A stretch of DNA of 64,000 nt. It comes from an uncultured bacterium (GTDB lineage Bacteria > Desulfobacterota > GWC2-55-46). The position numbers were made by a program, and so were the translations under genes. The stretch is taken from contig CAJPGC010000007.1 of NCBI GenBank assembly GCA_905339405.1, forward strand, positions 27,739 through 91,738. Reading direction: 5' to 3'. Shown piece after piece: positions 6,848 through 61,947 of this stretch; the first letter of the stretch is position 1; each line of letters begins with the position of its first letter. The notes beneath the pieces are model-generated. The model made no database searches. It saw only the letters and a program-made list of their open reading frames with translations, and had not been told where the DNA came from.

Positions 6848-6858
6848 CAGGCGAAAGC

Positions 6859-9212: not shown

Positions 9213-9263
9213 CGCGGGTACCAGCCCGTTTTGAACGCGGGCTTTTAAATTTCCACGGAGGCG

Positions 9264-11210: not shown

Positions 11211-11232
11211 GCCCGTATAGGAACAGGGGATA

Positions 11233-12096: not shown

Positions 12097-12123
12097 CGGC
12101 CGTCCGCCGGAGGCTCGGGCTCC

Positions 12124-29250: not shown

Positions 29251-30377
29251 ACCTGGCCTCTGTCCAGATGCTCGGCTGGATAGCGTTGACAATAGCCCTT
29301 TTCTGGGCCGCCCCGCGAAGGTTCCAGCCCTATGTGGCGGCGGCCTCGTGCGCATTGCTGCTGTTGGTTTTCTCGCCTGTCTCTTTCGTCGTGCTCTCTA
29401 TTTTCACAGCTCTCGGGTATGTCCCTTTCAGGTACGGGAGACGGTCAGCCGCCGGGGCGCTCTGCGCTGGCGGGGCCGTGGCAGCGGTCTTCATCTGGTT
29501 CAAGTCAGGGGCCGCCACAGGAGGGGCGCTCGTGCCGCTCGGTTTCGGCTTCTATACGCTCAGGGCGCTCCATTACGGCCTTGACTCGGTCAAGCGCGCG
29601 CTCCCTCCGCACACTTACTGGCAGTTCGTAAGCTATATGTTCTTCCTTCCGACGATTATTGCCGGTCCGATAAACAGGTTTCAGGAATTCCATAGGGAGC
29701 TGGCGCGAAGAAGGTTTGATAAAGATCTTTTCTCGAAAGGGTGCGAGAGGATCCTTTACGGGTTCGTGAAGATAATCGTGCTGGCCAGCTACGAAGTCTC
29801 CCATATCCTGCGCCTGCGCATCGAGGCCATGGAAGGGCAGCACGAGATACTGGCCGCCTACCTCGACTGCATAAGGTACGGGCTCAACCTGTATTTTCAG
29901 TTCTCAGGCTACTCGGACGTGGCAATAGGCTTTTCAATGCTTCTGGGCTTCAGGATAGCCGAAAATTTCAATTACCCGTTCCTTGCCCGGAACATCGGCG
30001 ATTTCTGGAAGAGATGGCATATATCCCTTTCGAACTGGTGCAGGGACTATGTCTACATGATGGCGCTCTCGGTGAGCAGGCGTCCGTGGGCTGCCGTCAT
30101 CGCTTCGATGCTCGTCCTCGGGGTCTGGCATGAGCTTTCGCCAAGGTACCTTGCCTGGGGAGTCTACCACGGAGCGGGGATAGCCGTCTGGCAGGGTTTT
30201 CAGAAGGTAAAAAAGAATATTCCGGCAATGGATTTTGCCGGAGGGAAGTACCTGACGGAAGGGGCCTCCTACCTGCTGACAATGAACTTCGTGATACTCG
30301 GGTTTGCCATAACAAAGGAGCCTGACCTGGCTTCGGGGCTAAGAGTGATCGGTAAAATACTTTTTTTCTGGGTGTAA
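29247..30377 (+). CDS. MBOAT-family membrane O-acyltransferase (DltB/AlgI-like)
   Basis: Polytopic protein with the MBOAT signature FWKRWHISLSNWCRDYVY and a downstream conserved His (WHELS). Start ATGA overlaps the upstream stop. Confidence 0.85.
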   Translation: MNLASVQMLGWIALTIALFWAAPRRFQPYVAAASCALLLLVFSPVSFVVLSIFTALGYVPFRYGRRSAAGALCAGGAVAAVFIWFKSGAATGGALVPLGFGFYTLRALHYGLDSVKRALPPHTYWQFVSYMFFLPTIIAGPINRFQEFHRELARRRFDKDLFSKGCERILYGFVKIIVLASYEVSHILRLRIEAMEGQHEILAAYLDCIRYGLNLYFQFSGYSDVAIGFSMLLGFRIAENFNYPFLARNIGDFWKRWHISLSNWCRDYVYMMALSVSRRPWAAVIASMLVLGVWHELSPRYLAWGVYHGAGIAVWQGFQKVKKNIPAMDFAGGKYLTEGASYLLTMNFVILGFAITKEPDLASGLRVIGKILFFWV

Positions 30378-37857: not shown

Positions 37858-39108
<1,251 letters not shown>

Positions 39109-39127
39109 CCTTCTCAAGTCAGCTGAA

Positions 39128-39164
39128 AGCCCGCGGGCAGCAATGTCCCGCGGGCTTTTTTTAT
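39128..39164 (+). terminator. Rho-independent terminator after glyA
   Basis: Hairpin agcccgcggg-N9-cccgcgggct followed by a T7 run. Confidence 0.7.
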
Positions 39165-39207
39165 TTCCGGCCTTGCCTGCGGGTGACAATCGTGATATTT
39201 TCGGAGT

Positions 39208-39447
39208 ATGGAATACATTCTGGGCTTCGGTTCTCCTCACAAGGCGTTGAAGGCCGAGGAGATATTGAAGAAAGCCTCCGTCCCCTTCAGGCTCCTGCCG
39301 GTGCCGAAGGCGCTTGACGCGTCCTGCGGGCTCGTCATCTCGGTGAAAGACGGCGCGTTTCATGACGCCTCTGGCGTTCTCGAAAAAAACGGGCTGAGGC
39401 CCAGGAACATATACAGGAAAGAAGGTGAGGACTATGTTAAAGTGTGA
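39208..39447 (+). CDS. DUF3343-like small protein
   Basis: 79-aa ORF. Composition resembles DUF3343-type small proteins (GFGSPHKALKAEEILKKA...L.P.P...C); the family assignment is from memory. Confidence 0.45.
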   Translation: MEYILGFGSPHKALKAEEILKKASVPFRLLPVPKALDASCGLVISVKDGAFHDASGVLEKNGLRPRNIYRKEGEDYVKV

Positions 39448-39613
39448 TTTCTGCGGCAGGGAGGCCGCCACGGTTGGAAGGGTCGCTCTTGACAGGGAAT
39501 ATGACAGGCTTACGGTAAAGCACGAGAAGAGGTTCGCGTGCCCTGAGTGCTCCGAGAAAAAGGAAAAGGAGAGGCAGGCCAGGCTCAAGACAGCGAAGAC
39601 AAAGGCCGATTGA
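39434..39613 (+). CDS. Small zinc-ribbon protein
   Basis: 59-aa ORF with RBS aaggtgagg 4 nt upstream of the ATG. CDFCG...CPEC pairs plus a basic tail. Overlaps the previous ORF end by 14 nt. Confidence 0.35.
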   Translation: MLKCDFCGREAATVGRVALDREYDRLTVKHEKRFACPECSEKKEKERQARLKTAKTKAD

Positions 39614-40038
39614 GGCGCGTTCTGGTACTTGCCCAGGTCAGGACACGGCTCGTGCCTTCGCTACAGATGCTTTCTGACAGAGACCTTCCCGAAGCTCTCT
39701 TATATTCCTGATAACGGCATTTTAACGGACATACCCCTAAGGCTCGGCAGGCGAGACATAAGCCTTTCGCGCCGGAGGGGTTTTTTTATCTTCCGCAGGA
39801 CATGACGGGACCCGCGATAAAATCAAATATTTTCAGGTAGTTATCAGGGCTCATGTGCGTTGGCAGCGCTCGTAGGCCAGGGTGCACTGGAAGGAGAAAA
39901 TCGAGGCGGCTTCAAGGCTTTCGAAGACTGGCGCGAGCTGTTTCGCCCACGGCGGTGAAATCGAGTTTTGTTGTAATTCAAGGCGCAAAATGATATTCTA
40001 AAACTTGCTTTTTTCAGGGTTTTTCCCTGCATTTACCG

Positions 40039-40893
40039 ATGAAAAGACTCCCTTCCTGGGCAAAAAAGACTCTGGGGCCGCTTGGAGCGCTCCACGAGAT
40101 GAAATCCATTCTCCGTAAGAGGAACCTCCATACGGTCTGCGAGTCCGCGAGGTGCCCGAATATCGGCGAGTGTTTCTCCAAGCCTACGGCGACCTTTCTA
40201 ATACTGGGCGACGTCTGTACCCGCACGTGCGCCTTCTGCTCGGTCGACAAGAGAGCGCGCCCACTCATCGTCGACCCGGAAGAGCCCATGAACATAGCCG
40301 TCACGGCGAAGGAACTGGGGCTCCGCCATGTGGTCGTCACTTCGGTCACGAGAGATGACCTTCCGGACGGCGGAGCGGGCCATTTTGCCTTGACAATCAA
40401 GGCGATACGGGATAACATTTCCCGCATTTTGATAGAGGTCCTGACCCCTGATTTCAGGGGAAACGAAGGGGCCCTGTCGGTTGTTTTCGAGGCCTGTCCC
40501 GACATATTCAACCACAACCTCGAGACGGTCCCGTCTCTTTACTCGCTCGTGCGCCCACAGGCGGACTATCGGCGTTCGCTTGTGGTGCTCGCGGCCTCGA
40601 AAAGGGCCGGGCTCATTACCAAGTCCGGCATCATGGTCGGGCTCGGCGAGACTCCCTCAGAGGTGAGGGAGGTCTTAAAAGACCTCAAGGACGCGGGCTG
40701 CGATGCCGTTACGATAGGACAGTACCTGAGGCCCACGAGGGAGAACCTCGAAGTGAGGGAGTACATAGAACCAGAGGTATTCAAGGAATACGAGGAGTTC
40801 GGAAAGGCCCTGGGGTTGCGCCATGTGTACTCGGGGCCTTTCGTAAGAAGCTCATATAATGCGGAAAAGTTAATGGACGAGCTGAAGCCATAA
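40039..40893 (+). CDS. lipA: Lipoyl synthase
   Basis: CESARCPNIGEC and CTRTCAFCSV dual-cluster motifs. Confidence 0.9.
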   Translation: MKRLPSWAKKTLGPLGALHEMKSILRKRNLHTVCESARCPNIGECFSKPTATFLILGDVCTRTCAFCSVDKRARPLIVDPEEPMNIAVTAKELGLRHVVVTSVTRDDLPDGGAGHFALTIKAIRDNISRILIEVLTPDFRGNEGALSVVFEACPDIFNHNLETVPSLYSLVRPQADYRRSLVVLAASKRAGLITKSGIMVGLGETPSEVREVLKDLKDAGCDAVTIGQYLRPTRENLEVREYIEPEVFKEYEEFGKALGLRHVYSGPFVRSSYNAEKLMDELKP

Positions 40894-40987
40894 GGATTCC
40901 TCCTAAAAAATTGTTCTTTTTCCTGATCTCTTTGTCAGGGCGGAAAAATAACTGATTTTTAGAGTCATCCATACTCAACAACCGAAG

Positions 40988-42190
40988 GTGCCTACGATGG
41001 AAGAGTTCCACAGGATAAAAAGGCTTCCGCCTTACGTTTTCAACATAGTGACCGACCTGAAGGTCCAGGCCCGCAAAAGGGGCGAGGACATAATAGACTT
41101 CGGCATGGGCAACCCTGACCAGCCCACCCCGAAGCACATTGTGGACAAGCTCATAGAAGCCACCATGAACCCGAGGAACCACAGGTACTCGGCTTCAAGG
41201 GGTATCTACAAGCTCCGCTGCGCCATAGCAGACTGGTACAAGAGGCGCTACAACGTCGACATAGATCCGGAGACCGAGGCTGTCGCTACAATAGGCTCGA
41301 AGGAGGGCATCGCCCACCTGGCGATGGCCATAATAGGCCCCGGCGACGTCGCGTTCGTGCCGAGCCCGACCTACCCGATACACACTTATTCGGTCATCAT
41401 AGCCGGGGGCGACGTAAGGAGCATCCCGCTTCTGCCGGGCGTCGATTTTTTCGACGAGCTGCAGAAGGCCGTCAAGCAGACCTGGCCGCGCCCGAAGCTC
41501 CTCATATTGAACTTCCCGCACAATCCTACGACGGAGTGCGTGGACAGGGAATTTTTCGTCAAGGTCGTGGACTTCGCCAAGGAGAACGACCTCATGGTCG
41601 TCCATGACCTCGCCTACGCCGACATAGTATTCGACGGCTACAAGGCGCCGAGCTTTCTCGAGGTGCCGGGCGCGAAAGACGTCGGGATTGAGTTCTTCAC
41701 GCTCTCCAAGAGCTACAATATGCCGGGTTGGAGAGTAGGCTTCGCCGTTGGCAACAAGAGGCTCATCGGCGCGCTCACGAGGATAAAGAGCTATCTCGAC
41801 TACGGCATGTTCCAGCCGATACAGATAGCCGGTATAATCGCGCTGAACGGCCCGCAGGACTGCGTCACCGAGATGTGCCACACCTACGAGCTCCGCCGAA
41901 ACGCCCTCATAGAGAGCTTCGGCAAGGCGGGCTGGGAGATAGAAAAGCCGAAGGCGACGATGTTCGTTTGGGCCAAGATACCCGAGCAGTACAGGGACAT
42001 GAAGTCCATCGAGTTCTCCAAGTTCCTCCTCAACAAGGCAAAGGTGGCAGTGTCCCCGGGCATTGGCTTCGGCGAGTACGGCGACGATTACGTCCGCCTC
42101 GCGCTCGTCGAGAACGAGCACAGGGTACGCCAGGCCGCCAAATGCATAAAGAAGGCTTTTGAATCGTCCGTCGAGAAGGTGGTCGGCTGA
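40988..42190 (+). CDS. Class I/II PLP aminotransferase (DapL/AlaT-like)
   Basis: N-terminal RLPPYVF...[15 protein letters not shown] block typical of LL-DAP / alanine aminotransferase-like enzymes; SKSYNM PLP-Lys region. Confidence 0.75.
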
Positions 42191-43557
42191 TGCCAGTTTC
42201 TGAAAAGGAATTCGCCCGCACCGGGGCCATGAAGACAGCGAAGCGCGTGAACGTCGGGCTCATAGGTTTCGGCACCGTCGGCACCGGCGTCGTGAGGGTC
42301 TTGAAGGAGAACGCCTCCGTCATCAAGGACAAGCTCGGCTGCGAGCTGGTATTGAAGAGGGTCGCCGACAGGGACATTGGCCGTGACAGGGGCGTGAAGC
42401 TTGACGAAGGCGTCCTCACGAGCGAGGCGATGGAGGTCATAAACGACCCGGAGATATCGATAGTCATCGAGCTCGTCGGTGGCACCGGCATAGCGAAAGA
42501 CTTCATCATGGAGGCGCTCTCGAACGGCAAGCACGTCGTGACCGCCAACAAGGCGCTCCTTTCCACCCACGGCAAGGAGATATTCAAGAAGGCCTCTGAA
42601 AAGGGCGTGGACATAGGCTTCGAGGCGAGCGTCGGCGGCGGCATACCCGTAATAAAGGCATTAAGGGAAGGGCTCGCCGCGAACAGGATAGAGTCGATCT
42701 ACGGGATCATAAACGGCACCGCCAACTACATACTCTCGAAGATGACGAACGAGGGCGGCAAGTTCGAGGACGTATTGAGGCGCGCCCAGGAAAAGGGCTA
42801 CGCCGAGGCAGACCCGACCTACGACGTAGAGGGCATAGACACGGCCCACAAGCTCGCCATACTCATCAACCTGGCCTTCGGGACCTATATAGGCATCAAG
42901 GACATATACACCGAAGGCATATCGAGGATAAACCAGCTCGATATCAAGTTCGCAAAGGAGTTCGGCTACAGGATTAAGCTGCTGGCCATAACGAAGTCGA
43001 TAGACGGCAGAATAGAGGCGAGGGTGCACCCGACCATGATACCGGCCAACCACCCGCTGGCTAACATAGACGGCGCGTTCAACGGCATCTACCTGAAGGG
43101 CAACGCCGTGGGGCCGGTCATGCTCTACGGCATGGGCGCGGGGATGATGCCCACGGCGAGCGCGGTCGTGGCCGACCTAATCGACATTGCCAGGAACATG
43201 AACACCGGCGCGGCGCAGAGAATACCCGCGCTGTCGTATGCAGATGACGCCGTGCGCCCGGTCGACATAAAAGAGACCGACTCGCTGGAGATACCCTATT
43301 ACATGCGCTTTCTGGCGGCCGACAAGCCGGGCGTGCTCTCGAACATATCAGGCGTTCTGGGGCGTCACGACATAAGCATCTCGTCGGTCATACAGCGTGA
43401 CAGGAAAATTGGCGGGTCTGTGGCGCTCGTGATCCTGACGCACCACGCTGTCGAAAAGGAGCTCATGGCGGCCCTCAGCGAGATAGAGAAGATGGACACC
43501 ATACACGAAAAGCCCGTATACATCAGGATAGAGGAGAACCTCGGTGCAGCTAACTAG
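42190..43557 (+). CDS. hom: Homoserine dehydrogenase
   Basis: NAD-binding GLIGFGTVG and catalytic/ACT domains. Alternative start at MKTAKRV (42229). Confidence 0.85.
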   Translation: MPVSEKEFARTGAMKTAKRVNVGLIGFGTVGTGVVRVLKENASVIKDKLGCELVLKRVADRDIGRDRGVKLDEGVLTSEAMEVINDPEISIVIELVGGTGIAKDFIMEALSNGKHVVTANKALLSTHGKEIFKKASEKGVDIGFEASVGGGIPVIKALREGLAANRIESIYGIINGTANYILSKMTNEGGKFEDVLRRAQEKGYAEADPTYDVEGIDTAHKLAILINLAFGTYIGIKDIYTEGISRINQLDIKFAKEFGYRIKLLAITKSIDGRIEARVHPTMIPANHPLANIDGAFNGIYLKGNAVGPVMLYGMGAGMMPTASAVVADLIDIARNMNTGAAQRIPALSYADDAVRPVDIKETDSLEIPYYMRFLAADKPGVLSNISGVLGRHDISISSVIQRDRKIGGSVALVILTHHAVEKELMAALSEIEKMDTIHEKPVYIRIEENLGAAN

Positions 43558-44614
43558 GAAAGGACTCTGGGGAGGCATAATAAGGGAGTTCAGGGAATTC
43601 CTCCCGGAGATACAGGACGACGCGGTAACCACGCTGCTCGAAGGCAATACGCCCCTTGTCGAGTGCGTCAACCTCAAGGACCTCTTCGGTGAATTGAGGC
43701 TCATGCTCAAGTTCGAGGGCTTGAACCCCACCGGCTCGTTCAAGGACAGGGGCATGACCATGGCCGTCTCCAAGGCGAGGGAAGAGGGAGCGAAAGCGAT
43801 AATCTGCGCCTCTACCGGCAACACCTCGGCGGCCGCCGCGGCTTACGCGGCAAAGGCAGGCATGAGGGCGTTCGTGCTCGTGCCGGACGGTCAGATAGCC
43901 ATGGGCAAGCTCTCGCAGGCGATAATGCACGGGGCGATGGTCCTGCAGATAAAGGGCAACTTCGACAACGCCCTCGAGATAGTGAAAGAGATAACCAGAG
44001 ACTATCCCATAAAGATGGTCAACTCGATAAACCCGTTCAGGATAGAGGGGCAAAAGACAGGCGCCTTCGAGGTATGCGAGCACCTCGGGCACGCGCCGAC
44101 ATATCATTTCCTCCCGGTGGGCAACGCCGGAAACATAACCGCCTACTGGAAGGGCTACAGGCAGTATTACGGCGAGGGCATAATCTCCAACCTCCCGAAG
44201 ATGATGGGCTTCCAGGCCGAAGGGGCAGCGCCGATAGTCCTCGGCCACCCGGTCGAAGAGCCTGACACTCTGGCCACGGCCATAAAGATAGGCAACCCGG
44301 CGAGCTGGGACGGGGCGTTGAAGGCCAGGGACGAAAGCGGCGGCGTCATAAGTTCCGTGACTGACGACGAGATAATAGAGGCCTACAAGCTCCTGGCGGC
44401 CCGTGAAGGCGTCTTTTGCGAGCCCGCGTCTGCGGCTTCTGTGGCTGGCGTCATTAAGATGAAAAAAGAAGGCGTCCTCAATGACGGTGACACGGTCGTA
44501 TGCACGCTCACCGGCCACGGCCTCAAGGACCCGGACATAGCATTGAAGTCCTCTGAGAAGCCGATAAAGGTGCCTGCTGATACTGCGAAGATCCTGAAGG
44601 TCATGGGCTTTTAG
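43544..44614 (+). CDS. thrC: Threonine synthase
   Basis: PLP-Lys motif NPTGSFKDRG plus ASTGNTSAAAA. Confidence 0.9.
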   Translation: MQLTRKGLWGGIIREFREFLPEIQDDAVTTLLEGNTPLVECVNLKDLFGELRLMLKFEGLNPTGSFKDRGMTMAVSKAREEGAKAIICASTGNTSAAAAAYAAKAGMRAFVLVPDGQIAMGKLSQAIMHGAMVLQIKGNFDNALEIVKEITRDYPIKMVNSINPFRIEGQKTGAFEVCEHLGHAPTYHFLPVGNAGNITAYWKGYRQYYGEGIISNLPKMMGFQAEGAAPIVLGHPVEEPDTLATAIKIGNPASWDGALKARDESGGVISSVTDDEIIEAYKLLAAREGVFCEPASAASVAGVIKMKKEGVLNDGDTVVCTLTGHGLKDPDIALKSSEKPIKVPADTAKILKVMGF

Positions 44615-44705
44615 CAGCAGGCTGCCTGAAAATACGATAAGCTGTTTGTGAGGGCGCTCCAGGCCCTCAGCTGTTTGATTCTCCCAGGAACGGAAGGGAC
44701 ATCCC

Positions 44706-45917
44706 ATGAAGTACATAATACTCGTCGGCGACGGAATGGCCGACAACGACATGGCCGAGCTCGGCGGCAAAACGCCGCTCGACGTCGCCAGCACCCCCAA
44801 CATGGACTCTCTTGCCGGGAAGGGCAGGTACGGCCTTTTCAGGACGGTGCCTCCGGGGTTTTCCCCGGGCAGCGACGTCGCCAACCTGAGCGTCATGGGC
44901 TACGACCCGAGGAAGTACTACACCGGCAGGGCCCCGCTCGAGGCGGCCTCAATTGGCGTAAAGCTAGGCCCGGCCGACATAGCCTTCAGGTGCAACCTCG
45001 TCACTCTCGTTGAAAAAGACGCCGAGACGATAATGGGGGACTACAGCTCCGGCCACATAACCACGGATGACGCGAGGGAGATAGTCCTCTCTCTCGACGA
45101 GGCTTTGAAGTCCGAGGGTGTCAGGTTCTACCCCGGCACCAGCTACAGGCATCTCATGGTCTGGAAGGACGGGGCAAAGGAGCTGAAGACCACCCCGCCG
45201 CATGACATATCCGACAAGGCGATAGCGCCCTGGCTGCCAAAAGGCGACAGGGCCGACAAGCTGGTGCGCCTCATGGAGCTTTCCTGGGCAGTGCTGAAGG
45301 ACCACCCCACGAACAGGAAGAGGGTGGCGGCTGGCAAAAAGCCCGCAACTTCCATCTGGCTCTGGGGGCAGGGCAGCGCTCCGGCGATGCCTGCATTGCG
45401 CGAGCGGTTCGGGAAAGAAGGCGCGATAATATCGGCCGTGGACCTCATGAAGGGGATAGGCTTGTACGCTGGTCTCGAGGTCATAAACGTGCCCGGAGCA
45501 ACCGGCTACATCGACACCAATTATAAGGGAAAGGCCGAGGCCGCCATCAAGGCGCTCGAGTCTAAGGACTTCGTCTGCGTCCACGTCGAGGCCCCCGACG
45601 AGGCCGGGCACAACGGCAGCCTCAAGGACAAGCTCCAGGCCATAGAGGACTTCGACGGGAAGATAGTAGGCCCGGTAGTGAAGGGCGCGGCCAGGTTCGG
45701 GGATTTCGCGGTGCTCGTCCTCCCGGACCACCCGACCCCGGTTGCCATAAAGACCCACACTTCCGACCCGGTCCCATTTGTCCTGTACCGTAGCGGCGCT
45801 GAAGGCGAGCCTTCGAAGTTCTGCGAGAAGGGCGCGAAGTCGACCGGCGTCCTCGTCGAGGACTGCCAGTCGCTCGCGGAGGATTTTTTCGGAAGGTCCG
45901 AGAAAGCCCGGGCCTGA
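44706..45917 (+). CDS. Cofactor-independent phosphoglycerate mutase, archaeal-type (ApgM family); candidate non-canonical homoserine kinase
   Basis: ApgM-family N-terminus (MKYIILVGDGMAD...TPNMD) and metal-binding Asp/His residues. Located immediately downstream of hom-thrC with no thrB present. Confidence 0.75.
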   Translation: MKYIILVGDGMADNDMAELGGKTPLDVASTPNMDSLAGKGRYGLFRTVPPGFSPGSDVANLSVMGYDPRKYYTGRAPLEAASIGVKLGPADIAFRCNLVTLVEKDAETIMGDYSSGHITTDDAREIVLSLDEALKSEGVRFYPGTSYRHLMVWKDGAKELKTTPPHDISDKAIAPWLPKGDRADKLVRLMELSWAVLKDHPTNRKRVAAGKKPATSIWLWGQGSAPAMPALRERFGKEGAIISAVDLMKGIGLYAGLEVINVPGATGYIDTNYKGKAEAAIKALESKDFVCVHVEAPDEAGHNGSLKDKLQAIEDFDGKIVGPVVKGAARFGDFAVLVLPDHPTPVAIKTHTSDPVPFVLYRSGAEGEPSKFCEKGAKSTGVLVEDCQSLAEDFFGRSEKARA

Positions 45918-45941
45918 GTTGGCAAGAGGATAAAAACAAGA

Positions 45942-45970
45942 GCCCGCAGAATGTCTGCGGGCTTTTTTCT
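45942..45970 (+). terminator. Rho-independent terminator
   Basis: Hairpin agcccgcaga-atgtctgcgggc followed by a T6 run. Confidence 0.65.
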
Positions 45971-46066
45971 GTGTGTAAGCCGGTCATCAGGCCGAATAGC
46001 GGCACCCCTCTTTTCTAAAGAGGGGCAGGGGAGATTGAACTGGACGGATCATCCCCTCGCTCCCCT

Positions 46067-46948
46067 TTGGCAAAGGGGGAAGTTCACTATGAGAACCCTT
46101 TCAATATGAAACGTTCCCTCTACGCGCTCCTCATATTCGCCTCTATACTCCTGGTGCTTTACCTGGCGTTCATCCCGGGCGTGGCTCACCTTGTGAAGGA
46201 GAACCCGAAAAAAACCGCCATGATGGAGTACAGGGAGGCCGAGTGGGCCGCCAAAAAGAAAAAACGCAGGATAAGCCATGTCTGGGTGCCGTACTCGCGC
46301 ATCTCCCCGTACATGGCCAAGGCGGCCATAATAGCCGAGGACGACAAGTTCTGGCAGCACGAGGGCTTTGACGTCGAGGCCATAAGCAAGGCCATAGAAA
46401 AAGACCTCAAGGCCGGGAAGTTCAAATCCGGCGGCTCCACCATAAGCCAGCAGCTCGCCAAGAACCTTTTCCTTACCCCGGCTAAGTCTCCCGTAAGGAA
46501 GATAAGGGAGGCAGTCATCACATGGAAGCTCGAGCGCACGCTCTCGAAAAGGCGCATACTCGAGCTCTATTTGAACGCCGCCGAGTGGGGCGAGGGCGTA
46601 TTCGGCGTGGAGGCGGCCTCACGCCACCACTTCGGCAAGTCCGCTTCACAGCTCACGGCGATGGAAGCCGCGAGGCTCGCGGCCGTCCTCCCCAACCCGA
46701 GGAGGTATAACGCCTCCGGAGAGCAGAGGTACGTGGCCAACAGGGCGAACGTCATCTACAGGATAATGGTCAGGCGCGGCATAGCCATCCCCGAGTTCGA
46801 GGAGATACAGGCCGAGGGCATCGATATCTCTTCTTCCATCGATATTACCGCTGAACCCGGCGTGTCGACCGAGCCCGGCGAAGCGCCTGCCGGTGCGCCG
46901 CAGGACAGCCTGCCCGTTGTCGAAGAGCCGAAGGCAGTCACGAACTGA
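46067..46948 (+). CDS. mtgA: Monofunctional biosynthetic peptidoglycan transglycosylase (GT51)
   Basis: GT51 motifs (EDDKFWQHEGFD, GGSTISQQLAKN); N-terminal TM anchor. A more likely start is the ATG at 46106 (MKRSLYALL). Confidence 0.8.
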   Translation: MAKGEVHYENPFNMKRSLYALLIFASILLVLYLAFIPGVAHLVKENPKKTAMMEYREAEWAAKKKKRRISHVWVPYSRISPYMAKAAIIAEDDKFWQHEGFDVEAISKAIEKDLKAGKFKSGGSTISQQLAKNLFLTPAKSPVRKIREAVITWKLERTLSKRRILELYLNAAEWGEGVFGVEAASRHHFGKSASQLTAMEAARLAAVLPNPRRYNASGEQRYVANRANVIYRIMVRRGIAIPEFEEIQAEGIDISSSIDITAEPGVSTEPGEAPAGAPQDSLPVVEEPKAVTN

Positions 46949-47306
46949 AGCTTACGGCATGCTTTTTTTGCGCGCTGCCGCGCTAAATTGTTTCCGCCAA
47001 AATACCATGTAACGCGGCTGTCGCCGCTCTCTGTAACAGGGCTCTACGCGCTTTCCGCCTCCCCCACCCGCGAACCTCGCCCCTGAGGTCGCTTCGCTCC
47101 CGACAGCCCCGGCTCGGTTCGCCACTGCCTCCCTTAGGCGCGCTCCGCCCTGTTACGGTGTATGTGTTAAAGACAATACAAATAAAAAACAAATCTTTTT
47201 AGGCGTATCATAGCTGGCGCAGGTTAATCTCTAGAGCGGTAGCCGCTATTACAGAGGAATTGATTATATCCCCATCCCTGAAGGTTGAAAACGGCATCCG
47301 TCCTTC

Positions 47307-47335
47307 TTGACTCTCTCCAATATCTGGATTATCAT
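47307..47335 (+). promoter_or_regulatory. Putative sigma-70 promoter of the lexA operon
   Basis: TTGACT-17 nt-TATCAT immediately upstream of the palindromic operator. Confidence 0.4.
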
Positions 47336-47356
47336 AGGGTAACGTTTGTTACCCTA
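47335..47356 (+). promoter_or_regulatory. Palindromic operator (candidate LexA/SOS box) overlapping the lexA start codon
   Basis: TAGGGTAAC-GTTT-GTTACCCTA: perfect 9-bp inverted arms, located between the -10 element and the ATG. Confidence 0.45.
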
Positions 47357-47967
47357 TGAAGCCGCTTACCACAAGACAAAAGGAAATACTCGTTTTTTTA
47401 CGCGAGTTTATAAGCGAAAGCGGATACCCGCCCTCACTGAGGGACATCTGCGCCCGCTTCGGCATAAGCGGCCCCAAGAACGCGGCAAAGCACCTCGACG
47501 CCCTCGAAAAAAAGGGCTTCATAAGGAGGAGGGCCGCCTCGTCGAGGGCAATAGAGCTTCTCGGGCCATCCCCGCTGGGAGGCGTGCCAATTCCCATAGC
47601 GGGAAGGGTGAGGGCGGGCTCCCCTGAACCAGCTGTCGAGGACATAACAGGCCACGTGGTGCTCGATGAGAGCTTCTTCAGGTGCTCCGGGGCTTTTGTC
47701 CTGAAGGTCGTGGGCGAGAGCATGACAGGGGCCGGGATAAACGACGGGGATTTCGTCGTCGTCAGGCCCCAGCCTGAGGCCGCGCCCGGCGACATTGTCG
47801 TGGCCCTCCTGGACGGCGAGGCCACTGTGAAGACCTTCCTGCGCGACGGGGACGAGGTCGTATTGAGGCCCGAAAACCCGGCGATGAAGCCTATAAGGGT
47901 TACCGGGACGGAGGACTTCGCAATTGCCGGCAAGGTCGTGTCGGTCATAAGGCGGATTGGGAAATAG
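47356..47967 (+). CDS. lexA: LexA repressor (S24 peptidase)
   Basis: N-terminal winged HTH, AG cleavage site (IAGRVRAG), Ser/Lys dyad (GESMTGAGI ... KTF). Confidence 0.9.
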   Translation: MKPLTTRQKEILVFLREFISESGYPPSLRDICARFGISGPKNAAKHLDALEKKGFIRRRAASSRAIELLGPSPLGGVPIPIAGRVRAGSPEPAVEDITGHVVLDESFFRCSGAFVLKVVGESMTGAGINDGDFVVVRPQPEAAPGDIVVALLDGEATVKTFLRDGDEVVLRPENPAMKPIRVTGTEDFAIAGKVVSVIRRIGK

Positions 47968-47986
47968 TTTAAGGAATTTAAAGAGT

Positions 47987-48223
47987 ATGGCTGAAAGCAT
48001 AAAGGAAGAGATAAAGGTCGTGGCCGTCTTCGACAGGGGCTTGAAGCCGGTCAAGTTCCGTTGGCGCGGGCGTCTTTACATCATAACGGAGGTGACCCAC
48101 ACCTGGTCTTCGAGGCATGGGGCTTCCGGCATACTCCACTACGCGGTCACTGACGGGGCCACGCTTTTCGAGCTGGCCTACAACCAGTCGACGATGAGAT
48201 GGTCGATAGAGGCGTCCGAGTGA
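47987..48223 (+). CDS. Small hypothetical protein within the SOS operon
   Basis: 78-88 aa ORF between lexA and dinB; its stop overlaps the dinB GTG (GTGA). Confidence 0.4.
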   Translation: MAESIKEEIKVVAVFDRGLKPVKFRWRGRLYIITEVTHTWSSRHGASGILHYAVTDGATLFELAYNQSTMRWSIEASE

Positions 48224-49452
48224 AGCTCATAATGCACGTCGACATGAACGCCTTTTTCGCCTCCGTCGAGCAGAGGTGCGACCCGGCCCTTCGCGGCAAG
48301 CCCATAGCCGTCGTCGGCTCGGCCAAGAGGACGGTGGTGACGACCGCCTCCTACGAGGCGAGGAAGCTGGGCGTCAAGACCGGAATGAACAAGTTCGAGG
48401 CAAAGAAGGCCTGCCCGTCGCTCATTCTCGTCATCGGCGACAACAGGAAGTACATAGACGCCTCGGTGCGCATACTGGAGATATTGAAGTCCTTCTCCCC
48501 GAAGGTCGAGGCATATTCCATCGACGAGGCGTTCCTCGACATAACGGGCTGCCTTAAGCCCTTCGGCTCGCCGGAGGCACTGGCAAGGGCCGTGAAGGAG
48601 AGGATAAGGGAAGGGGTCGGCCTTACCTGCTCCATCGGCATAGCGCCTAATAAGCTCCTGGCAAAGCTCGCCTCCGACATGCAGAAGCCGGACGGCTTGG
48701 TAATAATAGATGAGGCCGGGAAAGCGAAGCTGCTGGAGGACCTCCCGGTGGGCGAGCTCTGGGGCATAGGCCCGAGGCTCACCGAGCACCTCGGCAGGTT
48801 GGGAGTGAAGACCTGCGGCCAGCTCGGCAGGTTCCCGGCAAGCGTGCTGCGCGAGAGGTTCGGCATAATAGGCGAGAGATTGAGGCTCATGGGCCAGGGC
48901 GTCTATTCGAGCGAGGTAGTGCCGATAGGGCAGGAGGAAGAGGCCAAGAGCGTCGGCCACTCCACGACTCTGCCTGCCGATACGTCCGAGAAAGCGGAGA
49001 TCAAAAGGTATCTCCTGAAGCTCTCCGAGATGGTTGGCGCGAGGGCGAGGGAGCATTGCCTCAAGGGCGGCAAAGTATGTCTCACAATAAGGTACCCTGA
49101 TTTTTATACCTTCTCGCGACAGAGAACGCTACCCGTCCACACGAACGACACCCGGGCCATATATGCCTCGGCCCTGGCCATACTGGAGTCGATGAGGCTC
49201 AGGACGGCCGTCAGGCTCCTGGGCGTTTCGATATCCGCTCTCGCGAAGGGCAGCGGCCAGATGGCCCTTTTCGAGGAGGACAGACGGCGCGAGAAGCTCC
49301 TCGAGGCTATGGACGAGGTCAACAGGTCTTTCGGCGAGTACACCGTCACCTGGGGGACTCTCCTGGACGAGGGGGGCGGAAGCGAGGACGATACCGGGGT
49401 GATATCCCCGGCGTGGAGGCCTGTCGGTGTAAAAAGGGTCAACGTGAAATGA
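48220..49452 (+). CDS. dinB: DNA polymerase IV (Y-family)
   Basis: Y-family motifs (IMHVDMNAFFASVE, SIDEAFLD). Residues VKLIMH align with E. coli DinB MRKIIH, supporting a GTG start at 48220. The listed ORF start 48199 and an ATG at 48232 are alternatives. Confidence 0.85.
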   Translation: MKLIMHVDMNAFFASVEQRCDPALRGKPIAVVGSAKRTVVTTASYEARKLGVKTGMNKFEAKKACPSLILVIGDNRKYIDASVRILEILKSFSPKVEAYSIDEAFLDITGCLKPFGSPEALARAVKERIREGVGLTCSIGIAPNKLLAKLASDMQKPDGLVIIDEAGKAKLLEDLPVGELWGIGPRLTEHLGRLGVKTCGQLGRFPASVLRERFGIIGERLRLMGQGVYSSEVVPIGQEEEAKSVGHSTTLPADTSEKAEIKRYLLKLSEMVGARAREHCLKGGKVCLTIRYPDFYTFSRQRTLPVHTNDTRAIYASALAILESMRLRTAVRLLGVSISALAKGSGQMALFEEDRRREKLLEAMDEVNRSFGEYTVTWGTLLDEGGGSEDDTGVISPAWRPVGVKRVNVK

Positions 49453-56212: not shown

Positions 56213-57340
56213 TTGAGGAGGCAGACCGTGAAAAGTATCTTGATTACCGGAGGAGCGGGATTCATAGGCTCGCATCTGTCTGATGAGCTCCTTGCCAACG
56301 GGTACGAGGTCAGGGCGCTGGACAACCTCTCAGAGCAGGTCCACGGCAGCGGCAGCACGAGGCCCGAGTACCTCGACGACAGGGTCGAACTCGTAGTAGG
56401 CGACGTAAGGGACCCTGAAGCTGTCCGTGAGGCGCTCGACGGGGTCGACGCGGTGTTCCACTTCGCCGCAGCAGTCGGCGTAGGGCAGTCGATGTACGAG
56501 ATTGCCGAGTACGTTGACGTGAACAGCCGGGGCACGGCCGTGCTCCTCGAGGAACTTATAAAACAGCCTGTCAAAAAGCTCGTCGTGGCCTCGAGCATGA
56601 GCATCTACGGGGAAGGCCTTTACAGGGCCTCCGACGGCTCGATGATATCGAACGCCTGCAGGGAGCTCGAAGCCATAAAGGCCGGCAAATGGGAGGTAAT
56701 GGACGGGTGCGGGCAAGCAGCCGTTCCTTTGCCGACTGGCGAGACAAAGGAGCCCTCCCTTTCATCTGTCTACGCCCTCACGAAGTACGACCAGGAGAAG
56801 ATGTGCCTCATGACTGGCAGGGCTTACAACATCCCGACCGTCGCAATGAGGTTCTTCAACGTCTACGGCCCGAGGCAGGCCTCCTCGAACCCGTATACCG
56901 GCGTGCTGGCCATATTCTCAGCGAGGTTCATGAACATGAGGCCGCCGCTCATCTACGAGGACGGTCTGCAGAAAAGGGACTTCGTGAGCGTTCACGACAT
57001 CGCCAGGGCCTGCAGGCTCGCGCTTGAGAGCGGCTCCGCAGATTATCTTTCCTTCAACGTAGGAAGCGGCCGGAGCTATTCGATACTGGAGATTGCCGGG
57101 CGCCTGTCAAAGGTCTTCGACGTCGACATAAGCCCCGAGGTCGTCGGAAAGTACAGGGTTGGGGACATAAGGCACTGTTTCGCCGACATCGGCCTGGCCG
57201 AAAGGCTCCTCGGCTACACTCCTTCCGTTTCGCTTGACGAGGGTCTCGAGGAACTGCGGCAATGGCTCGAAGGAAGGGTCGCTCACGACAGGGTAGCCGA
57301 GGCGAGCGCGGAACTTGCTGGACGCGGCCTCACAATCTAA
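56213..57340 (+). CDS. NAD-dependent epimerase/dehydratase (UDP-sugar 4-epimerase-like SDR)
   Basis: TGGAGFIGSHL Rossmann motif and YxxxK region. Possible start at GTG 56228. Confidence 0.85.
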   Translation: MRRQTVKSILITGGAGFIGSHLSDELLANGYEVRALDNLSEQVHGSGSTRPEYLDDRVELVVGDVRDPEAVREALDGVDAVFHFAAAVGVGQSMYEIAEYVDVNSRGTAVLLEELIKQPVKKLVVASSMSIYGEGLYRASDGSMISNACRELEAIKAGKWEVMDGCGQAAVPLPTGETKEPSLSSVYALTKYDQEKMCLMTGRAYNIPTVAMRFFNVYGPRQASSNPYTGVLAIFSARFMNMRPPLIYEDGLQKRDFVSVHDIARACRLALESGSADYLSFNVGSGRSYSILEIAGRLSKVFDVDISPEVVGKYRVGDIRHCFADIGLAERLLGYTPSVSLDEGLEELRQWLEGRVAHDRVAEASAELAGRGLTI

Positions 57341-57354
57341 GGCGGGATGAATCG

Positions 57355-58638
57355 ATGAGATACGCCCTTGTGAACCCTAATTGGAATTTTGACGGCAGCG
57401 CGTACTTCGGCTGCCGCGAATGTCATTTTCCGCTCGAGCTCGGTTACTCGAAGGCTCTTCTTGGTGAGGCCGGTTTCGATTCGATCATCATCGACGCTCA
57501 CATGGAGGGACTGTCACTGGCGGAGGTAAGGCTGAGGGTTGAGGCGTTCTCGCCTGATTTCATCGTTGTCACTACCGCGCCGAGCTATCTTTTCTGGCGC
57601 TGTCCGCCTCCGGAGCTCAAGATTCCGATGGAGTTGATGGAAGCCCTTGAAGGGATAAAGGGGCAGAGGATAGTCATGGGGCCGCACGGCTCGGTGACTC
57701 CGGCCGCCGTGATGAAAAAACTCGGCGCTGACATCGTCATAATTGGAGAGGGCGAAAGCGTCCTTCCCGATATCGGCAGGAACGCCGGAGACTTCGGCAA
57801 GGTGCCTTCGATATGCGTCAACCGCAACGGCGTGGCGGAAATACAGGGAAGGCCTGCCGCTTCAGATATGGCGTCGCTTCCGGCCCTCAAGTGGGGGGCT
57901 GAATACATTAGCAGGCATTCGCACCACCACCACAGGTTCGCAACCCGGCCGGAAGGGCTCGGGGCCGAGGTGGAAGCTTCGCGCGGCTGCCCCTATTCGT
58001 GCACCTTCTGCGCGAAAGACTCCTTCAGGACGAATTACAGAAAGCGCCCTCTTGAGGCTGTGCTCGAAGAGCTCGACTGTCTCTGCGCGAACGGGGTTGG
58101 GTACGTCTACTTCATAGACGAGATATTCATGCCGGACAGGGCCCTTCTTGACGCGCTGGCCTCAAGGAAGCTCTCTTTCGGCATACAGACGAGGATAGAC
58201 CTGTGGAAGCCCGGGATGCTCTCTCTCCTCGGAGAAGCCGGGTGCGTTTCCATTGAGGCCGGGGTCGAGAGCATATCAGAGCGCGGCAGGAGCCTTCTCG
58301 GTAAAAGGTGCGCCGCTTCTACCGAAGAGCTCGTGGCGCTCCTTTCGGCGGCCAGGAAATCCGTGCCATTCGTTCAAGCGACCCTGCTCGATTCCCGCGT
58401 CGACGACCCATTGGCAGTCGAAGCATGGAGGAGCATGCTGCTGGACCACGGCGTGTGGGCGAACAGCCCGGTGCCCATGTTCCCATATCCCGGCTCCGGT
58501 GAGTATACGAAAAGATGGGGCAGGCCAGACGATTACGCCTGGGAGCGCGCTCACGAGCATTACCTCGAGGTCAACGGCTCCTTCAGCGACATCCAGAGCT
58601 CTAACCCTGTGCCCTTGCGGGAGCTCGAAAAAAGATGA
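57355..58638 (+). CDS. B12-binding radical SAM protein (class B)
   Basis: N-terminal cobalamin-binding-like domain and CPYSCTFC (Cx3Cx2C) motif. ATG at 57355; the listed ORF start 57262 overlaps the epimerase gene. Confidence 0.75.
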   Translation: MRYALVNPNWNFDGSAYFGCRECHFPLELGYSKALLGEAGFDSIIIDAHMEGLSLAEVRLRVEAFSPDFIVVTTAPSYLFWRCPPPELKIPMELMEALEGIKGQRIVMGPHGSVTPAAVMKKLGADIVIIGEGESVLPDIGRNAGDFGKVPSICVNRNGVAEIQGRPAASDMASLPALKWGAEYISRHSHHHHRFATRPEGLGAEVEASRGCPYSCTFCAKDSFRTNYRKRPLEAVLEELDCLCANGVGYVYFIDEIFMPDRALLDALASRKLSFGIQTRIDLWKPGMLSLLGEAGCVSIEAGVESISERGRSLLGKRCAASTEELVALLSAARKSVPFVQATLLDSRVDDPLAVEAWRSMLLDHGVWANSPVPMFPYPGSGEYTKRWGRPDDYAWERAHEHYLEVNGSFSDIQSSNPVPLRELEKR

Positions 58639-59759
58639 GCGCGCCAGGAAGGCTTAAAAAGGTATTGATGACGGCCGACACGGTCGGCGGTGTCTGGACT
58701 TATTCAATCGAGCTGGCCGCCGCACTGGAAAAAAAGGGCGTGCAGGTCTTTCTTGCCACCATGGGCGCGCCGTTGACCCACGGCCAGATCGCTGAAGTTA
58801 AAATGGTGCCTGGCCTCGAGGTATTCGAGAGCGGCTTCAGGCTCGAATGGATGGAAGACCCCTGGGAGAACGTAAGGCTTGCGGGAGAGTGGCTTCTCAG
58901 GCTCGAAAACTATATCAAGCCGGACGTCATACATTTGAACGGATATTCTCACGGCAGTGTGCCTTTCAGCGCGCCTGCCGTGGCAGCCGGCCATTCTTGC
59001 GTACTTTCGTGGTGGGAAGCCGTAAAGGGCGGAGATGCTCCCAAGGACTGGGACAGGTACCGCCGGGAAGTAGGCAGCGGGCTTGCGGGGGTGAAAGCTG
59101 TTTGCGCGCCGACGCGGGCCATGCTCGCCTCCCTCCACAGGTTTTACCGGTTTTCGGCCCCCTCGCGCGTAATACCTAACGGAAGGGAAGAAGAGCTTTT
59201 CAGGCCCGCCGAAAAACAGGACTTCATCTTCGCCGCCGGAAGGCTCTGGGACGAGGCTAAAAACATACGGACTCTCCAGGCCGCAGCGTTTTCGCTCGAA
59301 TGGCCCGTTTACGCCGCAGGCGAATGCTCGCATCCTTCAGGGACTCAGCTCCCTGATGGAGCGATAAGGGCCCTGGGCGTGCTTTCGCAGAAGGAGCTTG
59401 CCTCATGGCTCTCGGCCGCCTCTGTTTTCGCGGCACCGGCCCTCTACGAGCCGTTCGGCCTCACGGTTTTGGAAGCCGGTCTTTCGGGAGCTGCGCTCGT
59501 GCTCGGCGACATACCTTCCCTTAAGGAGAACTGGGAGGACGCGGCCCTTTTCGTAGAACCGAGGGATACGAAATCGCTGAAAGATATCCTGTCTCTCCTC
59601 ATGAGGGACGCCGGGTTGAGGTCTGCTTACGGCATAAAGGCAAGGGCGAGGGCACTCGAGTTTACGGCCTCGAGGATGGCCGAAGGCTATATCGATTTTT
59701 ACGAAGAAGCGCTTTCCGGTAATACAGGTTTCGAGGAGGCCCAAAGATGCGTTTCGTGA
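58635..59759 (+). CDS. Glycosyltransferase family 1 (GT4-type)
   Basis: C-terminal EPFGLTVLEAGLSGAALV GT1 motif; ATGA overlap with the upstream gene. Confidence 0.85.
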   Translation: MSAPGRLKKVLMTADTVGGVWTYSIELAAALEKKGVQVFLATMGAPLTHGQIAEVKMVPGLEVFESGFRLEWMEDPWENVRLAGEWLLRLENYIKPDVIHLNGYSHGSVPFSAPAVAAGHSCVLSWWEAVKGGDAPKDWDRYRREVGSGLAGVKAVCAPTRAMLASLHRFYRFSAPSRVIPNGREEELFRPAEKQDFIFAAGRLWDEAKNIRTLQAAAFSLEWPVYAAGECSHPSGTQLPDGAIRALGVLSQKELASWLSAASVFAAPALYEPFGLTVLEAGLSGAALVLGDIPSLKENWEDAALFVEPRDTKSLKDILSLLMRDAGLRSAYGIKARARALEFTASRMAEGYIDFYEEALSGNTGFEEAQRCVS

Positions 59760-60847
59760 TGTTCTATCATTCGCTCATATCCGACTGGAACCACGGAAAC
59801 GCTCACTTCCTGAGGGGGATAGCCACAGAGCTCCTCTTCAGGGGGCACGATGTCGTGGTCTATGAACCGGAGGACTCGTGGAGCTACGCTAACCTCACGG
59901 CCGTCTGCGGGCAGGCTTCATGTATTTTCGAATCGAAGTACCCGTGGCTCAAAAGCCGCAGATACAGGCTCGAGCAGATAGACCTCGAGGCAGCTGTTTC
60001 GGAAGCGGACGTCGTAATAGTCCACGAATGGAACGACCATGAACTCGTAAGGAGGCTCGGGGACATGAGGGCGCGCTCTAGCTCCTTCAGCCTTTTTTTC
60101 CATGACACGCACCACAGGTCGGTTACTGAGCCGGAGGGCATGGCCGCGTACGACCTCTTTAACTATGACGGCGTTCTCGCCTTCGGAGACGTAGTGCGCG
60201 ACCTGTACCTGCGGCGCGGCTGGGCTGAGAGGGCATGGACCTGGCATGAGGCAGCTGACCTGCGCACGTTCAGGCCGCTCGAAGCTGAAAAGAAGGGAGA
60301 CCTAGTCTGGGTTGGGAACTGGGGCGACGGCGAAAGGGCGGCGGAGCTCTCGGAGTTTCTTCTCGAGCCGGTAAAATCATTAGGCCTCAAGGCGCGCATC
60401 CACGGCGTCAGATACCCCGAGGAAGCTTTGGCCAGCCTGGAGGACGCCGGGGTCGAGTACGCGGGCTGGACTCCCAACTTCGACGTGCCGGAGATTTTCG
60501 CATCGTTCAATTTTACCGTCCACGTGCCGAGAAGGCCCTACGCCGAATCGCTGCCCGGCATACCTACCATAAGGATTTTCGAGGCGCTAGCGTGCGGCAT
60601 CCCGCTTGTAAGCGCGCCCTGGGACGACTCTGAAGGGCTTTTCACTCCGGGGAAAGACTTCCTCGTGGCGAAGAACGGAGTGATGATGGAACGCCACCTC
60701 AAAGACCTTGCGAACGACAAAGCCATGAGATGGGAGATTTCCCGGAACGGCCTTGCGACGGTCCGCGCGAAGCACAGCTGCTCACACAGGGCTGACGAGC
60801 TCCTTGCGATATGCGGTGAACTCAAGGGAGGGATGGCAGCCATATGA
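59747..60847 (+). CDS. CgeB-like glycosyltransferase paralogue 1
   Basis: N-terminal SDWNHGNAHFLRG...GHDVVVYEP and C-terminal RIFEALACGIP motifs shared with the downstream paralogues. Confidence 0.65.
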   Translation: MRFVMFYHSLISDWNHGNAHFLRGIATELLFRGHDVVVYEPEDSWSYANLTAVCGQASCIFESKYPWLKSRRYRLEQIDLEAAVSEADVVIVHEWNDHELVRRLGDMRARSSSFSLFFHDTHHRSVTEPEGMAAYDLFNYDGVLAFGDVVRDLYLRRGWAERAWTWHEAADLRTFRPLEAEKKGDLVWVGNWGDGERAAELSEFLLEPVKSLGLKARIHGVRYPEEALASLEDAGVEYAGWTPNFDVPEIFASFNFTVHVPRRPYAESLPGIPTIRIFEALACGIPLVSAPWDDSEGLFTPGKDFLVAKNGVMMERHLKDLANDKAMRWEISRNGLATVRAKHSCSHRADELLAICGELKGGMAAI

Positions 60848-61926
60848 AACAGGGGCTTCAAATCGCTTTTTTCGGGTCGAGCCTCGTTTCAGCGTACTGG
60901 AACGGCGCGGCGACATATTACAGGGGAATAATAAAGGGCCTTAACGGCCTCGGCCATTCGATCAAGTTTTACGAGCCTGACGCCTACGACAGGCAGCGGC
61001 ACAGGGACATCGCCGACCCGGACTGGGCAAAGGTCGAGGTCTACCCGGCAACTCTCGACGGTGTTTCGAAAGCACTTGAGAAGGCATCTCGCGCGGACCT
61101 CATCGTAAAGGCGAGCGGAGTCGGCGTCTTCGACGAATTCCTCGAAAAGGCGGTGCTCGACATAAGGCGGCCCGGCGCGCTGGCAGCTTTCTGGGACGTC
61201 GACGCCCCGGCAACTCTCGAGCGCGTAAAGGAAAACCCGGCTGACCCGTTCAGGGCCCTCGCCGGAAAATACGACCTCGTGTTCACTTACGGCGGCGGCG
61301 AGCCTGTCGTGGCCGGTTACGGCGGGCTTGGAGCAGCGGCCTGTTGGCCGATATACAACGCGCTCGACCCGGCGACGCACTTTCCGGTCGCGCCTGTGGA
61401 GAGGTTCCGGGCGGACCTGGGTTTTCTCGGTAACAGAATGCCTGACCGCGAATCAAGGGTCTGGGAGTTCTTCTTCAACGCGGCAGCCGGCCTTCCGGAC
61501 AAGAAGTTTCTCCTCGGGGGGAACGGCTGGGACAAGGTGGCCATGCCGAACGTCAACTGGGTCGGCCACGTCTATACGCGCGACCATAACGCGTTCAACT
61601 CTACGGCCCTGGCGGTATTGAACGTCAACAGGGCTTCGATGGCAAGGTACGGCTTCTCGCCCCCGACGCGCATCTTCGAGGCTGCCGGGGCAGGCGCCTG
61701 CATCATAACCGACGAGTGGGAAGGCATAGGGATGTTTCTCGAGCCTGGCTCGGAAGTCCTTGTGGCTGAAAGCGGGGCCGAAGTGGGCGCGCTCGTAAAG
61801 GGGCTTACAAAGGAGAGGGCCGGTAAAATCGGCAGAAGGGCTTTCAAGAGGGTCATGGCCGAGCACACGTACGGTCATCGGGCAAGAGAGCTCGAGCGCA
61901 TCTTGAACGGACTGGCCGGCAGATAG
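60844..61926 (+). CDS. CgeB-like glycosyltransferase paralogue 2
   Basis: SAYWNGAATYYRG...GHSIKFYEP; C-terminal RIFEAAGAGAC. Confidence 0.65.
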   Translation: MKQGLQIAFFGSSLVSAYWNGAATYYRGIIKGLNGLGHSIKFYEPDAYDRQRHRDIADPDWAKVEVYPATLDGVSKALEKASRADLIVKASGVGVFDEFLEKAVLDIRRPGALAAFWDVDAPATLERVKENPADPFRALAGKYDLVFTYGGGEPVVAGYGGLGAAACWPIYNALDPATHFPVAPVERFRADLGFLGNRMPDRESRVWEFFFNAAAGLPDKKFLLGGNGWDKVAMPNVNWVGHVYTRDHNAFNSTALAVLNVNRASMARYGFSPPTRIFEAAGAGACIITDEWEGIGMFLEPGSEVLVAESGAEVGALVKGLTKERAGKIGRRAFKRVMAEHTYGHRARELERILNGLAGR

Positions 61927-61947
61927 GTCGAGAAAGAAAAGGAGTTT

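Follow-up and report, generated by a model that had tools for sequence, protein, structure and literature searches.

The gene at 44706-45917 on the + strand very probably encodes a homoserine phosphotransferase of the HomK type, a family also known as TIGR02535 or ThrB2, and would serve as a non-orthologous replacement for the homoserine kinase ThrB. It lies within a 64,000-nucleotide stretch of DNA, hereafter the window, from a 126,865-bp contig in the metagenome-assembled genome of an uncultured member of the Desulfobacterota. The fold, the curated family score, the residues and the gene context of the 403-amino-acid protein come from this analysis. The pathway role and the rescue of thrB mutants come from its relatives. 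From these we infer the activity of the protein itself, a ping-pong mechanism and the nature of the phosphoryl donor.

The protein is a typical member of a family that is already curated and published (TIGR02535, ThrB2, HomK), and the reassignment is not new. For this genome, the HomK assignment would close an apparent gap in the threonine pathway. The public name "cofactor-independent phosphoglycerate mutase" is probably wrong, and the result is an annotation correction. Such a correction matters for metabolic reconstruction and for the prediction of auxotrophy in the genomes of Desulfobacterota and Nitrospirota, and brings no new biology beyond the published work on HomK/ThrB2.

The threonine gene block

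The block is composed of four genes on the same strand and is closed by a strong terminator. The features are as follows.

40997-42190, + strand: AlaT-like aminotransferase of class I/II, which opens the block, 397 aa; PF00155 at 5.7e-59; NF006033 (alanine transaminase) at 675.5 bits against a cut-off of 647
42190-43557, + strand: homoserine dehydrogenase (hom) with a C-terminal ACT domain; PF00742 at 5.7e-69, PF03447 and PF01842; NF004976 at 555 bits
43544-44614, + strand: threonine synthase (thrC); TIGR00260 thrC at 318.8 bits against a cut-off of 167.1; PF00291
44649-44669, + strand: weak hairpin in the gap between thrC and homK, found by a simple terminator scan; 7-bp stem and a poor T tail
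44706-45917, + strand: very probable HomK / ThrB2 / TIGR02535-type homoserine phosphotransferase with an ApgM-like fold; TIGR02535 at 552.9 bits, PF10143 and PF01676, key residues
45938-45966, + strand: strong intrinsic terminator closing the block; 13-bp stem (7 GC pairs) and then a T run; has the form of a terminator on either strand

The original prediction placed an ApgM-type gene directly behind an aminotransferase-hom-thrC block, and the open reading frame, its domains and the same-strand gene order all agree with this. The open reading frame (44706-45917, + strand) encodes 403 amino acids, begins with ATG and includes its stop codon. A ribosome-binding site, GGAAGGGA, is found ~7 nt 5' of the start codon, and the start is judged to be correct because the first residue matches the first position of the family profiles. 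The aminotransferase gene is called from 40997, and its longest open reading frame begins at 40988. Overlaps of 1 nt (aminotransferase stop and hom start) and 14 nt (hom and thrC) link the first three genes, and 91 nt separate thrC from the gene for the 403-aa protein.

The statement that no terminator follows thrC was nearly right. The weak 7-bp hairpin at 44649-44669 is flagged there, but the gap between thrC and homK folds no better than shuffled sequences do (z = 0.38). Terminator-like sites in the region are as frequent as expected from shuffling (12 versus 9.8 +/- 3.1). The hairpin is probably not an efficient terminator. With a weak gap hairpin, an ordinary fold and one strong terminator at the end, the four genes therefore look like one transcription unit, and the aminotransferase, hom, thrC and homK are probably carried on one transcript that ends at 45938-45966. 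A leader, attenuator or riboswitch in or around the block was also considered. It was rejected on the basis of the gap fold and of an Rfam search of 39000-47500 at permissive thresholds, which returned two sub-threshold chance matches only and none in the gap hairpin. The Rfam Thr_leader match at 45938-45966 (23 bits against 55, E = 0.82, minus strand) is a chance match to the terminator hairpin.

ThrB is an ATP-dependent enzyme of the GHMP family. It presumably makes the same product as the 403-aa protein, O-phospho-L-homoserine, and holds the same place in the pathway and the operon. The two proteins differ in that they share no homology, and the 403-aa protein has no GHMP kinase domain in Pfam. 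A Pfam scan of the plausible open reading frames of the 64-kb window, together with the gene table for 34.7-55.9 kb, finds no GHMP-kinase domain, and therefore no thrB is present in the window. The same scan and gene table find no His_Phos_1 or iPGM_N domain, and therefore the window has no gpmA or gpmI. The absence of thrB, as originally stated, thus holds for the 64-kb window of this metagenome-assembled genome, and the check for a canonical thrB or gpmI/gpmA that had been proposed found neither when run over the same 64 kb.

Family membership and active-site residues

Members of this family have been studied in a small number of organisms. In Bacteroides thetaiotaomicron, which has no thrB, mutation of the TIGR02535 member BT2402 makes growth dependent on threonine (PMC7311316). 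A first attempt at complementation with BT2402 failed (PMC7311316). Ashniev et al. named the family ThrB2, found thrB and thrB2 in complementary sets of gut genomes, and reported that thrB2 co-localises with thrC and hom (PMC9026213). In the GapMind 2026 preprint, BT2402 and the diverged DET_RS08350 of Dehalococcoides mccartyi rescue an E. coli thrB::kan mutant (bioRxiv 10.1101/2024.10.14.618325). These rescues are weak: the gain in OD600 after 47 h was 0.14 to 0.25. The preprint also introduces HomK, "homoserine phosphotransferase", as the new family name, gives S56 as the catalytic serine, and proposes E299 of BT2402 as a specificity residue that is Lys in nearly all mutases (10.1101/2024.10.14.618325). 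A published comparison of 1,012 homologues already covers the Glu/Lys contrast. The experimental evidence found comes from Bacteroides/Phocaeicola and Dehalococcoides. The original prediction had pointed to reports of such enzymes from some Bacteroidetes and from Desulfovibrio-type organisms; BT2402 bears out the first part, and the literature found on the family holds no statement on Desulfovibrio.

The Pfam matches of the 403-aa protein are PhosphMutase (PF10143, 1.7e-60) and Metalloenzyme (PF01676, 4.4e-44) only, an architecture that it shares with the archaeal-type ApgM mutases and with BT2402. Curated model scores were used as a proxy for tree placement relative to BT2402, DET_RS08350 and the characterised mutases. 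In NCBIfam, the protein passes TIGR02535, "proposed homoserine kinase", with 552.9 bits against a cut-off of 446.3. Its score with the general apgM model, TIGR00306, is lower at 529.3 bits. Both archaeal mutase equivalogs fail, NF003104 with 299.7 bits against 489 and NF003160 with 168.6 against 468. The best NCBIfam score belongs to NF003242, "cofactor-independent phosphoglycerate mutase", at 577.4 bits against a cut-off of 426. Every named homologue among the matches listed carries this same name, which is probably explained by NF003242. We know of no experiment behind the mutase name of this model.

The key residues of the protein are D9, S56 (the nucleophile), Y147, W218, W220, E295 (the specificity position), D298, H302, D341, H342 and H351. 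The relatives of solved structure are ApgM mutases, PH0037 of Pyrococcus horikoshii (PDB 2zkt) and the Thermoplasma acidophilum enzyme (PDB 3idd, 3kd8). They have the same fold, the Ser nucleophile and the two-metal site, and are ~35% identical to the 403-aa protein over 340-360 aligned residues (E = 1e-62 to 1e-56). Compared with 3idd/3kd8 and 2zkt, Ser56 is kept in its GSD motif and the set of seven metal-site residues is complete, with D9, D341 and H342 at metal site one and D298, H302 and H351 at metal site two. Ser56 and the metal ligands are invariant in an alignment of 17 sequences (62-93% identity to the 403-aa protein). Across 150 representatives of 50%-identity clusters they remain the majority residue, in 134 to 147 of the sequences.

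The specificity position sets the protein apart from the mutases. E295 aligns to Lys in both solved mutases, and Glu occupies this position in 138 of the 150 cluster representatives. Signature columns were defined as those conserved in at least 85% of the 150 representatives, common to the 403-aa protein, and changed identically in both mutases. Exactly four columns qualify: Y147 to H, W218 to L, W220 to R and E295 to K, a contrast that rests on two mutase sequences. E295 is the only conserved Glu-to-Lys column among them. The combination Y-W-W-E is found in 128 of the 150 representatives (135 if F at position 147 is counted), whereas both mutases have H-L-R-K. The Arg and Lys that would suit an anionic substrate such as phosphoglycerate are therefore replaced by Trp and an anionic Glu. 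Because D9 and S56 are numbered identically in BT2402 and E295 is the only conserved Glu/Lys column, E295 is equated with BT2402 E299. We infer this correspondence through the Lys of the solved mutases, as opposed to a direct alignment. BT2402 is absent from the 120 matches listed and is not recognisable in the set of 150 representatives. One cluster representative, P0229, was considered as a stand-in for BT2402. Its numbering fits (D9/S56/E299/D346/H347), but it has no R38 and is unnamed, and it was left unused.

These results bear on the reading that the gene follows thrC by chance and encodes a cofactor-independent phosphoglycerate mutase of glycolysis or gluconeogenesis. The ApgM fold and domains, the matches to the solved archaeal mutases, and the pass with the mutase-named NF003242 (577 against 426) all fit such an enzyme. 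All of the catalytic and metal residues for phosphoryl transfer are kept as well, and no other mutase is seen in the 64-kb window. Against this stand the failure of both archaeal mutase equivalogs and the change from H-L-R-K to Y-W-W-E, with loss of the Arg and Lys that would suit an anionic substrate. Moreover, relatives of the TIGR02535 type rescue a thrB defect rather than a mutase defect (10.1101/2024.10.14.618325). A mutase function is thus quite improbable, and the context of threonine synthesis rather than central carbon metabolism, described below, lowers its standing further.

The preferred HomK assignment is also consistent with a direct comparison to the known family. BT2402 has Glu at the specificity position and shares the D9 and S56 numbering; measured against TIGR02535, the 403-aa protein lies above the curated cut-off and has all metal ligands. 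The phylum differs from that of BT2402, and for the uncultured Desulfobacterota the function is read from sequence. In Bacteroides, the aspartokinase and homoserine dehydrogenase are fused, whereas the block described here has a monofunctional hom and an AlaT-like aminotransferase.

Two further observations concern the active site. Appendix 3 of the preprint lists D274, H278 and H325 as the second metal site of BT2402 (10.1101/2024.10.14.618325), which clashes with D346 and H347, the positions given for the first site, and with the residue order D298, H302, D341/H342, H351 of the 403-aa protein. The spacing matches with an offset of ~24-26 residues, and a numbering slip is likely. The metal ligands were therefore taken from the pattern in the solved structures and not from the second-site numbering of the preprint. 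In addition, ten cluster representatives (P0166, P0184, P0196, P0198, P0199, P0239, P0262, P0268, P0269 and P0270) carry a residue other than Glu at the specificity position (A, S, K, H, P, G or D). Most of them keep W-x-W, and P0262 has W-x-Y. These proteins may represent sub-families with another acceptor, comparable to the proposed threonine-phosphate-forming CbiU.

Gene context in related genomes

The gene order hom-thrC-homK places the gene in a threonine operon next to thrC and hom, as is known for HomK, and the arrangement recurs in relatives. One genome per species was scanned, which yielded 80 loci with proteins 51-69% identical to the 403-aa protein from Desulfobacterota, Nitrospirota, Geobacter-type bacteria and others. 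The scan pattern contained H[VI]EAPDEA; the 80 loci are therefore biased to the Glu type and are no test of Glu versus Lys, and their use as a sample for that contrast was rejected.

At 27 of the 55 loci with at least 3 kb of upstream sequence, hom and/or thrC is found on the same strand within 5 kb. The directly adjacent gene is thrC in 11 cases and hom in 6. When aspartate kinase is counted along with hom and thrC, at least one of the three is encoded within 6 kb and in the same orientation at 36 of the 80 loci, and this linkage is seen at 23 of the 44 loci with at least 3 kb on both sides. Unsupervised clustering of the neighbouring open reading frames places hom, thrC, the AlaT-like aminotransferase and aspartate kinase among the commonest neighbour families. 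The AlaT-like aminotransferase lies upstream of hom at 16 of the 80 loci and downstream of the HomK-like gene at 1 more. No glycolytic gene is found among the identified neighbour families (several of the 16 commonest were left unnamed). Linkage to hom, thrC and aspartate kinase, with no glycolytic gene among the identified families, argues against a mutase. The original prediction had reassigned the gene to a homoserine-phosphorylating role from its operon context. That role is now supported by the family model, by the specificity and catalytic residues, and by the context of the gene and of its relatives.

About half of the related loci, mainly from Geobacter/Desulfuromonadales, are not beside threonine genes. 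In Geomonas, the order is glnD, a tyrosine recombinase of the Phage_integrase family, the HomK-like gene and an aminotransferase-like gene. This locus was considered as an alternative context and is uninformative.

The Geobacter-type orthologues unlinked to threonine genes are one point in favour of a bifunctional enzyme, both mutase and homoserine phosphotransferase, or of another role in the threonine pathway, such as regeneration of the donor. After the failed complementation, the authors of the 2020 study allowed for "another role in threonine synthesis" (PMC7311316), which would accommodate this view. However, two later heterologous rescues of thrB::kan (10.1101/2024.10.14.618325) indicate that the protein by itself is enough to provide O-phosphohomoserine in E. 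coli, and the residue signature speaks against phosphoglycerate as the main substrate. Dual function or an accessory role is considered unlikely, to the same degree as a mutase function.

A role in threonine phosphate formation has been proposed for Dehre_1608 (PMC4285132) and for cobD-adjacent homologues (10.1101/2024.10.14.618325, Appendix 3). By analogy with these family members and near-members, the protein might phosphorylate another hydroxy-amino acid, for example L-threonine to L-threonine-O-3-phosphate for cobalamin in the manner of CbiU, and Glu at the specificity position would also suit threonine, but this is the least probable of the readings, given that the gene table and profile searches find no cobD or other cobalamin gene within ~10 kb, that the gene sits directly behind hom-thrC, and that the cobD-linked homologues score higher with TIGR00306 than with TIGR02535 while the 403-aa protein has the opposite order.

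Several loci of the relatives have features of their own. The HomK-like gene is immediately followed by a same-strand aspartate kinase gene at L010, L018 and ~14 other loci, in Nitrospirota and in some additional lineages. The gene after that is often citramalate synthase (cimA), an arrangement that brings genes for threonine and isoleucine precursors into one cluster. In Geomonas diazotrophica, an S26 peptidase gene (locus L031, 13102-13773, - strand) lies ~2 kb past the HomK-like gene and in the opposite orientation. One cluster representative of 622 aa, P0187, has a HomK-like domain fused to a signal peptidase S26 domain. Eight of the 150 representatives are 974-1123 aa long and carry the HomK-like domain at the N-terminus (P0125, P0129, P0131, P0137, P0143, P0146, P0169 and P0170). 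Pfam finds no match beyond the HomK-like domain in any of these eight. P0125, P0129 and P0143 contain the Glu-type motif HMEAPDECGH. After it come a linker rich in K/D/E, a single apparent transmembrane helix and ~500-550 aa of C-terminal sequence. For a cytoplasmic enzyme to be attached to a membrane-anchored, unannotated domain would be odd, and the long representatives could be an artefact of gene calling.

Proposed reaction and other genes in the window

HomK is probably a phosphotransferase that uses a donor other than ATP, rather than an ATP-dependent kinase. The term "homoserine kinase" in the original prediction is thus apt for the formation of O-phosphohomoserine, which is supported, and probably not for the ATP dependence that the word kinase implies. 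In the preprint, the donor is argued to be probably not ATP and probably not phosphoglycerate, with phosphoserine offered as speculation (10.1101/2024.10.14.618325).

The proposed mechanism is drawn by homology with the mutases and with the wider group of alkaline-phosphatase-like enzymes. Homoserine dehydrogenase, encoded upstream, would supply L-homoserine. The donor would phosphorylate Ser56 at the bimetal centre (D9/S56/D341/H342 and D298/H302/H351), and the phosphate would then move from Ser56 to the gamma-hydroxyl of L-homoserine. During this transfer the amino group of homoserine would be held by, and paired with, Glu295, the position that is Lys in the mutases. The resulting O-phospho-L-homoserine would be converted to threonine by ThrC, which is encoded just upstream.

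The following proposal on the donor is about as likely as not: the 403-aa protein and its family would take the phosphate for O-phosphohomoserine from a compound other than ATP (for example PEP, phosphoserine or a phosphoglycerate), and the Y147/W218/W220/E295 pocket, versus H/L/R/K, would re-tune the mutase scaffold into an intermolecular phosphotransferase. PEP and phosphoserine are donors suggested in the literature, where the donor question has already been posed, and it concerns the whole family. A precedent for a non-ATP donor is ThrH of Pseudomonas aeruginosa, a phosphoserine:homoserine phosphotransferase of the HAD family (cited in 10.1101/2024.10.14.618325). ThrH has an unrelated fold, and the likeness is a functional analogy only. 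If the proposal is true, threonine synthesis in this member of the Desulfobacterota would draw on a phosphoryl pool other than the one used by textbook bacteria.

Other parts of the window encode several recognizable gene groups. A complete chemotaxis cluster is found at 8355-15271 (+ strand) in the order cheY, cheW, MCP, cheR, cheA and cheB, and is preceded at 5714-8211 by a pair composed of a PAS histidine kinase and a sigma-54 activator. The stretch 24865-30377 (+ strand) encodes a tandem pair of AMP-binding (adenylate-forming) enzymes, 562 and 599 aa long, and after them a 306-aa open reading frame with no Pfam match and an MBOAT membrane O-acyltransferase. This group may be a surface-polymer acylation module. 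A small Se_S_carrier open reading frame (PF11823, 79 aa) lies at 39208-39447 (+ strand) between glyA (serine hydroxymethyltransferase) and lipA (lipoyl synthase). Downstream of the threonine block, at 47356-49452 (+ strand), lexA, a small DUF6504 open reading frame (78 aa, weak Pfam match) and a Y-family DNA polymerase (IMS/DinB-like) are found in a row. This arrangement resembles a mutagenesis cassette linked to LexA, in which the small partner is uncharacterised. Near the end of the window, an epimerase, a B12-binding radical SAM gene and a GT4 glycosyltransferase (56213-59759) lie ahead of three tandem paralogous Glyco_trans_1_2 genes of ~360 aa each (59747-63042, + strand).
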